Sequence record: OR992645.1
Source of the DNA: Escherichia phage EI-SP-GF
Reading direction: 5' to 3' (one strand)
DNA length: 64,000 bases
Shown here: positions 49,166-53,462 of the stretch, one piece after another
Numbering within the stretch: the stretch's first letter is position 1
How the letters are laid out: every line of letters starts with the position of its first letter
Translations under genes and position numbers: made by a program
The notes under the pieces: model-generated
Database searches by the model: none
Told to the model about the DNA's origin: nothing
The model's input: the letters and a program-made list of their open reading frames with translations, nothing else

Positions 49166-49399
49166 TTAATCTTCGTAAATAATGATTTCTGCTTTAGGTT
49201 TTCGTGCTTTCAGGTCCAGCTCTATCCAGTGCACCATCGCTGTTTCAAGAAAAACAGCCTGGATGCATCCGTCTTCAGCGTGCCCTACCAGCATAACAAG
49301 ATCTTCACATTCATCATCTGCATCACGGACATACAAGATCTCTCCAGATTCAAAGTCTTTCACAACCTGATTGCTGGATAATTTACGAATTTTTGCCAT
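49166..49399 (-). CDS. hypothetical acidic protein
   Basis: 77-aa ORF with RBS. Confidence 0.45.
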   Translation of the reverse strand: MAKIRKLSSNQVVKDFESGEILYVRDADDECEDLVMLVGHAEDGCIQAVFLETAMVHWIELDLKARKPKAEIIIYED

Positions 49400-49400
49400 A

Positions 49401-49664
49401 TCAGAAACCCTCTAAAAAGCTCTTGTAGAAAATAATCTCAGTATCCACACCAGTCACGATCTTGTCGTTCCTGATTTCATCTGTAAGATAGGTGTCAAAA
49501 CGCAGCACCTGTGTGGTATTGTCACACATCCACTCGGCTGTGACCATGGCAAAAATCTTGGCATCTTCATTATCTGGTGTGAATGTTACCACCTCACCGC
49601 ATTTAAACTTTTCGATAGGTTGCGTGTTAGCTTTTGGTTCTGCAATGGTGATTTTTGTAGTCAT
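49401..49664 (-). CDS. hypothetical protein
   Basis: 87-aa ORF with GGAGGA RBS; start overlaps upstream stop. Confidence 0.45.
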   Translation of the reverse strand: MTTKITIAEPKANTQPIEKFKCGEVVTFTPDNEDAKIFAMVTAEWMCDNTTQVLRFDTYLTDEIRNDKIVTGVDTEIIFYKSFLEGF

Positions 49665-49930
49665 TACTCTTCCTCCATAGTTTCACCAAATACTTCGATA
49701 CGAGCGTCAAGCTCTGTTGCTTTCAGCTCCCCGACAAAATCTTTCAGTTCTTTCTCGTCAAGATCGTATGCCCACACACAAGATGAGCATGCAGATTTCA
49801 CGATTAGCAGTGTAGATACACGGCCTGACTCTGTAATCATGCTCACAATGGTTCCTACAGGGAACGTGTTGATAGCTTTTTTAACTGGGCGTTCAGCTTT
49901 AATTACTACCTCTGTTGCCATAAATACCAT
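49664..49930 (-). CDS. hypothetical protein
   Basis: 88-aa ORF. Confidence 0.45.
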   Translation of the reverse strand: MVFMATEVVIKAERPVKKAINTFPVGTIVSMITESGRVSTLLIVKSACSSCVWAYDLDEKELKDFVGELKATELDARIEVFGETMEEE

Positions 49931-49936
49931 CCTCTC

Positions 49937-51397
49937 TTACTTAGCATACTCGATTAATTCCACAGTTTTCCCAAAGCTCGGGATATAATTTTTATTATAC
50001 CCTTCAGTGAGAACCCATAAAGTATCGTACTTTTTCCACTTGTTGTCAACAGCCTTTTGTTCAAAGTTATGCTCAAAGTAGAGGTCGGTAAGGACGATGA
50101 CATCTTTTGCATTCGGTATGTTAGCATCCAGATACTCGAACACGCAGGCGGCTGTTGTGCCCCATGTTGAGTGGACCTCATAGTTGATCATCTCATCGAT
50201 GTTACCGCGAGTGTATACTTTAACCTCTCCAACCTCGGTTGACCAACAGAACATCGTAACCTTAAACTCTTTATACAAATTGCACAACCCGGTGATCTCA
50301 TTGAACATTTTCTTTAAAGTTCTTTGCGAGATCGATCCAGAAACGTCCAAAGCCACTACAATATCTATGGTGTTTTCCGGATTACGACCAGGAACAATAA
50401 TGTGTTGATTCTTGTTTATAGCTCTAACTTTTCGCATTGTGGTGGTCAAAGACCCAGATCGGCGACCAGGTTTTCTGTAGGTTAGCTCGGCCTTTCGTTT
50501 AGACAACATACGTTGCTTAATAATATCTATATAGTTGATTACAGGCTTGCCTCTGTTTTTGACAAACTCGCGCACCGCCTCAGGGCAACGACCTCCTGAA
50601 GCTTGCATTGCTGCTTCCAACATGTCACCAGAGTCCTGCATGGCCTGATCTTTATCAGATTGACTGATTACTGGTTGCGGCTGATCATACCCCATAGCCT
50701 TTCCAAGATCATCACTAGTGCCACCGTTCCCGCTCATGTGATCATCGGTTTGTCGTTTATCTCCTTGGGAGTTCTCGCCTTTACCATTCTTACTTTTACC
50801 GCTATTCTGATCTCTTTGTTTATCAAGAACTGCATAGACGTTCTCAGCAATCCATCCATGAAACTTCATGTCGCAGTAGCAATTAGCTAAGAAGCCAAAA
50901 GGCTTACCTTTTACGAACTCAGTGCTTTTCCCCTTCGGGAAGAAAACACAAGGAGGCTTGCTAAAGTCAACCACAAGACCTGTGTTGATAACGTGATCAC
51001 AAGCAATATTGAACAGTTCCGGCTCAAAGCTTTTACCACGGACCAGATGATCACAGATAATATGCCCCACCTCATGTGACAGAAGGAAGGCCACCTCTTT
51101 CACAGATTTTGGGGAATAGAAAACCTCAGCCATCTCAAACTGCTTGTCAGTCAGAGATGCTTTAAGAATGGTTTTACGCTCATCTGCCAACCCCATAATG
51201 AACTCAGGGCTGTAGTAGATGCGTTTATGGTCTGTTGCCATAGTGGAGCACCATGTGTGGTTTTCTACGAACTGCAACCCTGACAACAGTGTGCCATAAA
51301 ACGGCAGCTTTTCAAGAAGGTACATGCGAGCGGCCTGCAGCATTCGCAAGGCATCATCTTTTTGTGCGGTAATGATTTCTGAACTTCTGCTATCCAT
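49937..51397 (-). CDS. VWA-domain protein with N-terminal HExxH metallopeptidase-like domain (DUF2201-type)
   Basis: HExxH motif in LLSHEVGHIICDH; MIDAS motif DxSxS in VVALDVSGSIS; ATG 51397 with GGAG RBS preferred over 51418. Confidence 0.7.
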   Translation of the reverse strand: MDSRSSEIITAQKDDALRMLQAARMYLLEKLPFYGTLLSGLQFVENHTWCSTMATDHKRIYYSPEFIMGLADERKTILKASLTDKQFEMAEVFYSPKSVKEVAFLLSHEVGHIICDHLVRGKSFEPELFNIACDHVINTGLVVDFSKPPCVFFPKGKSTEFVKGKPFGFLANCYCDMKFHGWIAENVYAVLDKQRDQNSGKSKNGKGENSQGDKRQTDDHMSGNGGTSDDLGKAMGYDQPQPVISQSDKDQAMQDSGDMLEAAMQASGGRCPEAVREFVKNRGKPVINYIDIIKQRMLSKRKAELTYRKPGRRSGSLTTTMRKVRAINKNQHIIVPGRNPENTIDIVVALDVSGSISQRTLKKMFNEITGLCNLYKEFKVTMFCWSTEVGEVKVYTRGNIDEMINYEVHSTWGTTAACVFEYLDANIPNAKDVIVLTDLYFEHNFEQKAVDNKWKKYDTLWVLTEGYNKNYIPSFGKTVELIEYAK

Positions 51398-51430
51398 TAA
51401 AACTCCAGAAGGGGCCATTGGCCCCTGTCA

Positions 51431-52420
51431 TTATTTAACGTGCTTGAAAATACCAGCCAACTCGGTCATTGTCATGCGAGTGGTCTTCATAAGGTCTGTC
51501 ATAGCCTTCTCCATGATTGGAGATACTACCATGAAGTTACCTTTGGTGAAACCTTTGTTCCAGTCGGTAACTAATAGGGGTTTAAGTCCGGCACCGAGAC
51601 GTTCACCAGTTAAAGCACAACATTTTCGAATGTATGTGCTCTTAAACTGGCTGAATGACAGATCAACTTTCATACCTGCATCGTAGAACGTCTGGCAATA
51701 GAAAGTGTAAGCTTTGGCAATCTCAACATCGTCAGGCAGTGCAGGAACCTCTTCTGTAAGCTCTTCTTCGACCCCTTGAGGCTCTTTTTCCTCTTCGTAA
51801 GCCTGTTGCGTCATCTCTTCAATCTCCTCTACTACAGGCTCGTTTACAATGTCAGAAATGTGCTTGTTGGCTCCACGATTAGCCATGAAGTTTTTAAAAT
51901 CCTGCATTGGTGACATATCTTCCTCCCATTCTTCGTCAAAGAGTGCTAGTTTATCCTCTTCCGTTCCATATTGCAAGATGAAATCTTCAAAAGTGTAATC
52001 ACCTTTCAATTTCTCCATACGCTCTTCGCTCAGGTGGAGCATCATCTGCTGGACAATTTTTCGATCAGTTTTATCTTTAATCAGGACTGCGGTCTTTTTA
52101 TCTACCAGACAATCCTTTAGAGAGTTGCATCTCAATCCCACCACACAACAGTTATCAACCGCATAAGGACCTTCATCATCTATCCGCTCTAGAGATGGGT
52201 AGAAAGGATTTCCCAGTCCGTTTTCATCTGTGTGCATGTCGAAAGGTATAAGGGTATAGTCGCATACCCCCTCTCCTAAAAGTTTTTTACCAAATAGGAG
52301 ATATTCTTCCCATGACAGGTTGAACTCTATATCTCGTTTCCGTGCATTATTCTGTTTGCGTCTGTATTTTTTGAGCAAGCGCTCTAACTCTTCTGGTGTA
52401 TAATATTTTTCAAGATTCAT
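51431..52420 (-). CDS. HNH_3-like domain protein (degenerate HNH/AP2-type, two related modules)
   Basis: SLERIDDEGPYAVDNCCVVGLRCNSLKD and LVTDWNKGFTKGNFMVVSPIMEKAM both fit the ..ID..G.Y...N..VV.....N..K pattern; ATG 52420 with AAGAGA RBS preferred over TTG 52486; central acidic linker. Confidence 0.4.
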   Translation of the reverse strand: MNLEKYYTPEELERLLKKYRRKQNNARKRDIEFNLSWEEYLLFGKKLLGEGVCDYTLIPFDMHTDENGLGNPFYPSLERIDDEGPYAVDNCCVVGLRCNSLKDCLVDKKTAVLIKDKTDRKIVQQMMLHLSEERMEKLKGDYTFEDFILQYGTEEDKLALFDEEWEEDMSPMQDFKNFMANRGANKHISDIVNEPVVEEIEEMTQQAYEEEKEPQGVEEELTEEVPALPDDVEIAKAYTFYCQTFYDAGMKVDLSFSQFKSTYIRKCCALTGERLGAGLKPLLVTDWNKGFTKGNFMVVSPIMEKAMTDLMKTTRMTMTELAGIFKHVK

Positions 52421-52451
52421 GAGTTGTCTCTTGTTCTCTGTGGGTGGAGAA

Positions 52452-52480
52452 ATCTTACCAAGCGCCTGGGGAGATGTCAA
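52452..52480 (-). promoter_or_regulatory. leftward early promoter TTGACA-N17-TAAGAT
   Basis: on minus strand: -35 ttgaca (52480-52475), 17-nt spacer, -10 taagat (52457-52452). Confidence 0.5.
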
Positions 52481-52493
52481 CCTCAAAAACGTG

Positions 52494-52522
52494 TTGACTT
52501 TACTCTAAATCTCCGATATAGT
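52494..52522 (+). promoter_or_regulatory. rightward early promoter TTGACT-N17-TATAGT
   Basis: ttgact 52494-52499, 17-nt spacer, tatagt 52517-52522; AGGAG RBS and ATG 52563 downstream. Confidence 0.5.
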
Positions 52523-52562
52523 GCACCCATTCGAAAGAAAACTAACATAGGAGCACTTATTC

Positions 52563-53462
52563 ATGGCAAATCTTAACAGTTTTAGCACCAGGTGGCAACA
52601 GGATATAACAACCAATCTTTCAGCTGGAGATATCCTTTCTGCAATTTACGAGGCTTTGGATGATAAAGCTACTTCAAGATCGGTTTGTACTAATCCGCTA
52701 ATTCCTATGGTGATGAAGGTAATTGAGCGGAGGTTGGTATCTGGGTCCGATAAGTGGACATACCTTGATAATGGAGGGCATACTTACTCCAACGGATATG
52801 TTGATATAAAAGTGGAATACGCAGTATCATACCGCCGGAGCGGTTCTGTAACTTTCAACTTCTCTGGAGGTTTCCGATCTCTGGCAACTTCACCTTTTGT
52901 TTCCTCAGAGGAGAAGTATGAGCTGCCATTTCTTTGGATGATGGCTAACGCGACAGGAAAAACCCCCGTTAGCATCCGAGTAAAATACAACTACAACGGA
53001 TCTAGTAAGATCTATGCCGAGAGTGTCTCAGCAAGTTTTTATTTTGTGATGGGGGATGGAATCCTCAAACATATAAAGATGTGCGATATGCATGATGTTA
53101 TAAATGAAGTGACTGATAAGAATGTCCTAGTGAAAGACCTCAATAATTTTTATACACCTGGAGACTATTACGTCAACCGCCCACTGTGCATCTTTAATGC
53201 CGCACACCCTTTAGGTGAGTATTTGATCGCCAATAGCGATATTGCCAATAATCGCTTCGAGGTAGCAAGAGTACAGAATGAGGTGTTGACATCTTGCAAG
53301 AGCGGTGATAAGTTTACCGAAGAAGAGATGGGTGTTTTAGAGATGATGGGATATAAGTGTAGCCTTTGGGTAGATGAGGTGTTTAATGACGGCATCTATG
53401 GACAGGATATTTACCCACTAAAGAAGTATACTGATTCCAGTTTAATTTACGCGGAGATTTGA
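52563..53462 (+). CDS. hypothetical protein (first gene of rightward block)
   Basis: 299-aa ORF with AGGAG RBS. Confidence 0.5.
   Translation: MANLNSFSTRWQQDITTNLSAGDILSAIYEALDDKATSRSVCTNPLIPMVMKVIERRLVSGSDKWTYLDNGGHTYSNGYVDIKVEYAVSYRRSGSVTFNFSGGFRSLATSPFVSSEEKYELPFLWMMANATGKTPVSIRVKYNYNGSSKIYAESVSASFYFVMGDGILKHIKMCDMHDVINEVTDKNVLVKDLNNFYTPGDYYVNRPLCIFNAAHPLGEYLIANSDIANNRFEVARVQNEVLTSCKSGDKFTEEEMGVLEMMGYKCSLWVDEVFNDGIYGQDIYPLKKYTDSSLIYAEI

Follow-up and report, generated by a model that had tools for sequence, protein, structure and literature searches.

PacI is a bacterial restriction enzyme (PDB 3ldy/3m7k) and a homodimer, with one active site per subunit. Each subunit carries two Cys4 zinc sites. 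In this enzyme a tyrosine in the omega loop replaces the histidine that usually serves as general base, acting either as general base or as nucleophile; an Asp and an Asn serve as metal ligands (PMC5714182, PMC4081073). PacI has been classed together with HNH proteins of giant viruses as group 20 of the His-Me fingers (Jablonska et al. 2017, PMC5714182). Some His-Me fingers are inactivated. The Smad MH1 and ENPP nuclease-like domains keep the fold but have lost the His/Tyr and the metal ligands, and in Smad MH1 (group 16, PMC5714182) the HNH fold has been recruited as a DNA-binding domain.

The other described system that bears on this study is Srd of phage T4 (NP_049634; PHROG 1400), the product of an early gene of a lytic E. 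coli myovirus. Srd is 248 aa long and has a single module followed by a helical C-terminal half. To our knowledge, it is the sole characterised relative of the protein described here. In the part of PMC13232886 that cites Qi 2015, Srd is described as binding the N-terminal half of RNase E and stimulating host RNA decay. We found no paper that ties Srd to HNH nucleases or to endonuclease VII, and none on the homologous protein of phage rV5. The gene is not named in a 2026 PNAS paper dealing with toxic early products of phages. No Pfam or NCBIfam model covers T4 Srd.

The gene analysed here is a homolog of rV5 gp011. It lies in the window, a stretch of 64,000 nucleotides of Escherichia phage EI-SP-GF (OR992645.1) that is part of a Vequintavirus (an rV5/FV3-like E. 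coli myovirus) and is 99% identical to Vequintavirus genomes. The coding sequence occupies positions 51431-52420 on the minus strand (329 aa plus TAA), belongs to PHROG 3118 and matches the annotated gene bas49_0056 of EmilHeitz exactly. Its database labels are "anti-sigma factor", "HNH endonuclease" and "anti-termination". The surrounding region (51000-53000) shares 99% identity with phages ECO111 5-P and EmilHeitz (Bas49), and it is fully present in 117/117 matching records (megablast, each covering at least 80% of the locus).

Upstream of the gene, on the same strand, lies a sigma-70-type early promoter at 52452-52480 (minus strand), with TTGACA, a 17-nt spacer and TAAGAT preceded by an upstream TG. 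A divergent promoter, TTGACT-17-TATAGT, serves the rightward genes (52494-52522, plus strand). The two stand back to back (52452-52522), about 14 bp apart, and each is a near-consensus sigma-70 promoter with 10/12 matches. A longer mechanical open reading frame opens at TTG 52486, within the promoter TTGACA-17-TAAGAT. Because this TTG falls inside the sigma-70 promoter (52480-52452), we take ATG 52420 as the start. Downstream of the divergent promoters, the gene is the first in a leftward block of small early-type genes, a placement that the sequence-only reading had recognised. GC skew flips sign across the same block. The rightward block opens with a gene annotated as a putative alpha-1,3-fucosyltransferase.

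A GC-rich hairpin, GGGGCC-AAU-GGCCCC (51410-51426, minus strand), follows the stop codon and precedes the GGAG ribosome-binding site and ATG 51397 of the next gene. In its 49-nt context (51392-51440) it has a minimum free energy of -17.7 kcal/mol (z = -3.1), and 0/200 shuffled sequences fold as well. Within the early operon it could act in attenuation, RNA processing or RNA stability. The start of the next gene is placed at ATG 51418, inside the hairpin, by the list of open reading frames and at a later position by the EmilHeitz annotation. This next leftward gene (49937-51418, minus strand) encodes a DUF2201/VWA-like "metallopeptidase" protein, and a MoxR ATPase is encoded on the other strand about 4.5 kb to the right of the gene under study. 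Further along, at 49166-49930 (minus strand), three successive open reading frames of near-equal size (77, 87 and 88 aa) resemble small early paralogs arranged in tandem; the EmilHeitz counterpart has four genes of 237, 264, 264 and 264 bp.

The protein has two modules. The N-terminal PacI-type HNH module spans residues 8-112 (52085-52399, minus strand, as for all features of the protein below) and carries the motifs A..R29..F.L[ST] and C53-x-Y55-[TS]56. Its catalytic core, residues 76-103 (52112-52195), contains E78, R79, D81, Y86, N90, N99 and K102. A helical extension follows (residues 113-160, 51941-52084) with a near-invariant Y142; T4 Srd has this extension too, but PacI lacks it. A disordered acidic linker (residues 161-227, 51740-51940; net charge -18, pLDDT below 50) then leads to a degenerate C-terminal copy of the module (residues 228-329, 51434-51739) that retains C268, T271, D286 and N295. 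The two peptides quoted in the sequence-only reading were both found, at residues 76-103 and 283-307.

That reading described one protein with two related modules, and profile comparison bears this out. We aligned the N and C modules with hhalign using profiles built from 65 diverse two-module homologs (17-69% identity). The match has a probability of 97.4%, E=1e-11 and a score of 61.4. Controls were clean, scoring 9.7 for the reversed C profile, 10.9 for the middle region and at most 14.1 among 40 column permutations. An initial comparison with 12 close homologs was weak (E=0.002, probability 13%), and the result became decisive only with the 65 diverse sequences. Single-module relatives match the profile HMMs of both modules, in each case with the same residues; T4 Srd, for one, matches the N profile HMM at 2.7e-19 and the C profile HMM at 2.5e-7. 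AlphaFold2, run on a 12-sequence alignment, gives two well-defined domains (residues 1-160, pLDDT about 90; residues 228-329, about 89), with residues 165-227 disordered between them. The elements come in the same order in both domains, a long helix being followed by a short strand, another helix, a hairpin, two strands and a last helix. The pTM of 0.51 makes the geometry between the domains unreliable. From sequence comparison, the N and C modules are true homologs that arose by tandem duplication of a PacI-type HNH module.

The linker between them is acidic in this protein, as had been noted before, with 22 D/E against 4 K/R. Across the family the linker varies from 23 to 97 aa and its median net charge is only -2, so strong acidity is a trait of the lineage and not of the family. 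We therefore rejected the acidic linker as a family-wide feature, for example as a DNA mimic. DNA mimicry by the linker is possible within the gene's own lineage. The two domains themselves are mildly basic; across the family their net charges have medians of +3 and +4.

The fold was assigned through profiles, since domain libraries and single sequences gave nothing. With hmmscan, neither the whole protein nor either module alone matched any Pfam-A family at E<=10, an NCBIfam search had no match, and a single-sequence search of the PDB returned noise only. In PHROGs the full-length protein matches phrog_3118, "HNH endonuclease", at 5e-112. The N module matches PHROGs labelled endonuclease, endonuclease VII, "decoy of host sigma70" and "Srd anti-sigma factor" at 1e-10 to 1e-13, and the C module has a sub-threshold match in register to PHROG 4592, which belongs to the Srd family (E=0.27). 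When the 65-homolog family profile was compared with every PDB sequence, PacI was the sole match (E=0.0016), with the N module in register; no solved structure of a family member was found among the PDB sequences. A Foldseek search of viral models recovered rV5-type "anti-sigma factors", Srd of Acinetobacter phage 133 and giant-virus HNH proteins. The fold is a beta-beta-alpha-metal fold resembling that of PacI, and both modules belong to the HNH / His-Me finger superfamily.

Membership in this superfamily had been proposed from the sequence alone, under an HNH_3/AP2-like pattern. Profile searches upheld the HNH part, in its PacI-type form; AP2 and HNH_3 were absent from the Pfam matches, and that pattern does not hold. 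At the level of sequence profiles we rejected HNH_3, AP2, Endonuclease_7 and sigma-domain assignments, as Pfam and NCBIfam were empty. T4 endonuclease VII (PF02945) and the HNH_3 (PF13392) / AP2 homing endonucleases differ from this protein, which has no Pfam match at E<=10, no catalytic His, no CxxC pairs, no AP2 domain and no mobile distribution.

The active-site signature of PacI, [DE]-R-x-D...G-Y...N...N-x-x-K, aligns in register with the N module at an overall identity of only 11-14%. E78 corresponds to PacI D92 (E or D in 65/65 homologs), R79 to R93 (65/65), D81 to D95, Y86 to Y100 (65/65), N90 to N104 (65/65), N99 to N113 (63/65, the other two having His) and K102 to K116 (63/65). By this alignment, E78 and N99 are the predicted metal ligands and Tyr86 would lie in the omega loop. 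Neither module has a conserved His. The sequence-only reading took this as a sign that both modules are degenerate, which is right about the His and about the C module but not about the N module. PacI-clade enzymes use Tyr in place of His, so the N module is not degenerate on this account, and it keeps the PacI catalytic set in 63-65 of the 65 homologs. The omega-loop Tyr and the acid/Asn metal pair are accordingly present in the N module and missing from the C module. There, the catalytic positions are occupied by L283, V284, F291, E304 and M307, which are hydrophobic or variable across the family, and only C268, T/S271, D286 and the structural N295 remain.

A second difference from PacI lies in the zinc sites. 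The positions of the PacI Cys4 site (C63, C66, C109 and C112) are C53, T56, G95 and C98 here, and only C53 is conserved in the family; no structural Cys4 site is found. The proteins also differ in overall construction. PacI is a dimer of identical active subunits, whereas the phage protein is a single chain of two modules, of which only one looks intact, and adds the helical extension and the disordered linker. One is a bacterial restriction enzyme and the other the product of an early phage gene.

Exactly one catalytic-type motif is present in 162/172 retrieved proteins. P0170 (295 aa) begins with a CxxC ribbon and continues with a tandem of two intact PacI-type modules, and an intact tandem of this kind is a plausible ancestral state. 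P0128 (852 aa) and P0153 (827 aa) have four modules each, with Cys-rich segments between them and the motif SLER..N..GY..NC.L.A.EFN. These seem to be multi-module relatives, perhaps of giant-virus or eukaryotic origin. The inactivated Smad MH1 and ENPP domains offer a precedent for a binding-only role of the C module. They have no sequence relationship to it, and they differ in that the phage protein pairs its inactive copy with an apparently intact one in the same chain. We hold this structural and evolutionary description as a whole with high confidence.

The homology to T4 Srd is clear and is confined to about the first 160 residues. Srd aligns with residues 8-143 (BLASTP 9e-8, hhalign 1.3e-10; 24% identity over about 140 aa), and PHROG 1400 (Srd) matches residues 13-191 at 4.5e-10. 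The alignment takes in the N module and the helical extension with its conserved Tyr (Y142 here). Nothing corresponds to the stretch of Srd from about residue 160 to residue 248, so the two proteins are not colinear over their full length. Against the C-module profile, too, Srd matches by its N-terminal region only. T4 Srd (L002:3043-3786, minus strand) retains C45, Y47, S48, E64, R65, D67, Y72, N76 and N85. It thus shares the zinc-less C-x-Y-[ST] motif, with a single Cys (C45) at the former zinc site, as well as the E, R, Y, N and N of the active site. The EI-SP-GF protein differs from it in having the second, degenerate module and the acidic linker in place of the helical C-terminal half, and RNase E binding is known for Srd alone.

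Full-length homologs occur in 210 phage records, with identities from 100% down to 22%, in phages of Escherichia, Salmonella, Klebsiella, Cronobacter, Erwinia, Serratia and Aeromonas. All phage matches have gammaproteobacterial hosts, and these possess RNase E. Searched exhaustively with the HMM, a set of 1.84 billion representative proteins yielded 495 at E<=1e-10, and the best 150 of the 495 are mostly two-module proteins of 250-330 residues. In the Seunavirus PVP-SE1, a 38%-identical full-length homolog stands first behind an annotated promoter at a divergent junction, with a DUF2201/VWA homolog two genes downstream and a MoxR ATPase nearby. In two distant metagenomic phages the homolog is first or second in a block of small genes at a divergent junction; DUF2201 also lies near it in one distant metagenomic phage. 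Sixteen GenBank records (MG0656xx) named "Campylobacter phage", with C. jejuni given as host, are 92-97% identical to the locus, which suggests that their hosts are mislabelled or that coliphages were co-isolated.

A free-standing homing endonuclease, active or decaying and spreading among phage genomes, would fit the intact catalytic residues of the N module, and it would agree with the "HNH endonuclease" label in PHROG and RefSeq and with the one NCBI record that names a protein of this type "type II restriction endonuclease". The gene is neither sporadic nor mobile, however. Each of the 117 matching Vequintavirus-like records has it at this locus, PVP-SE1 has a full-length homolog in synteny beside the same DUF2201/VWA and MoxR genes, and the gene has diverged in step with the phages. 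A strong early promoter of its own precedes it, and the Pfam search found no NUMOD, AP2 or IENR DNA-binding modules. Fixed synteny and context across the Vequintavirinae indicate a vertically inherited early gene; they contradict the degenerate homing endonuclease that had been suggested from the sequence, and we regard any homing role as highly improbable. If both HNH folds instead only bind, the protein could be a DNA-binding regulator of early transcription, or else an anti-sigma or anti-termination factor. The loss of the zinc site from both modules, a clearly non-catalytic C module, the neighbouring divergent promoter region and the example of Smad MH1 all fit this idea, as do the GenBank labels "anti-sigma factor" (the label in most records) and "anti-termination". 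The first of these labels traces to a 1990s conjecture that T4 Srd is a decoy of sigma-70. A likeness to sigma-70 was rejected: the family profile compared with E. coli RpoD gives hhalign E=0.27, a BLASTP comparison gives E=0.52, the Pfam search found no sigma, HTH or AP2 domain, and neither Pfam nor NCBIfam recognised an anti-sigma domain. With two PacI-type folds, the first having all catalytic residues and the second none, the "anti-sigma factor" label is unsupported. Conservation of exactly the PacI catalytic residues in the N module (63-65 of 65) is also a poor fit to a pure DNA-binding regulator, and we consider such a role distinctly unlikely.

A closer contender is a functional orthologue of T4 Srd, a non-catalytic protein that would bind the catalytic N-terminal half of host RNase E, stimulate it and so speed early decay of host mRNA. 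The homology over the N module and helical extension points this way, as does an early gene under a sigma-70 promoter, like srd in T4, and a set of phage matches that all infect hosts with RNase E. The function of Srd is itself documented in the part of PMC13232886 that cites Qi 2015. But identity is only 24% over about 140 aa, and the C-terminal 90 to 100 residues of Srd are unrelated to the second module here. A pure adaptor would also leave the invariant metal-ligand and Tyr positions unexplained, and Srd itself keeps E64, R65, Y72, N76 and N85. We think this account possible but rather unlikely, and the specific connection to RNase E, drawn by analogy with Srd, is likewise doubtful.

On balance we lean, with moderate confidence, towards an early host-takeover gene of the Vequintavirus that encodes a PacI-type nucleic-acid enzyme of the Srd family, built as an asymmetric pseudo-dimer. 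The gene is an early one, driven by host sigma-70 RNA polymerase from its near-consensus promoter. Tandem duplication gave an N copy that lacks the Cys4 zinc but has the full PacI active site, and a C copy that keeps the fold only. The two flexibly tethered modules may cooperate on nucleic acid as a single-chain asymmetric pseudo-dimer, in which binding would fall to the mildly basic C copy, and a single metal- and Tyr-dependent phosphodiester cut to the N copy. The product would then be a nick, or a cut in single-stranded nucleic acid or RNA, and not a double-strand break. The likely role would be early shut-off or degradation of host nucleic acid, in parallel with T4 Srd, and this early attack could feed RNase E-dependent mRNA decay as described for Srd.

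The structural zinc site that PacI requires is absent, so the N module may be binding-only, its polar residues kept for contacts with phosphate. We rate catalytic activity of the N module as slightly less probable than its absence. A broader proposal, that the whole Srd family, T4 Srd included, consists of active zinc-less PacI-type Tyr-dependent nucleases, seems to us quite unlikely. The ends left by HNH-type cleavage carry a 5'-monophosphate, and RNase E enters preferentially at such ends. If this broader proposal were true, RNase E-dependent decay of host mRNA would start with the phage enzyme's own cuts, and the rV5-type proteins would be single-chain pseudo-dimers of an active and an inactive module specialised for single-strand cuts.

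The gene family is already in databases, loosely as HNH in PHROGs, and it is not a new kind of system. What appear to be undescribed are the family's place in the PacI Tyr-type clade, the combination of lost zinc and retained active site, the tandem architecture of an active and an inactive copy, and the conserved nuclease-type active site that this implies in T4 Srd. Every rV5-like phage, including several phage-therapy candidates, carries the gene, and its current labels, which lack evidence, can be replaced by a specific and testable architecture. An intact and an inactivated HNH fold in one chain make a clear example of a homodimeric nuclease turned into an asymmetric single-chain protein. 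The analysis also connects T4 Srd with an enzyme clade whose active site, unusually, relies on Tyr; Srd retains this site, and the mechanism of Srd-type host shut-off thereby becomes directly testable by point mutation.
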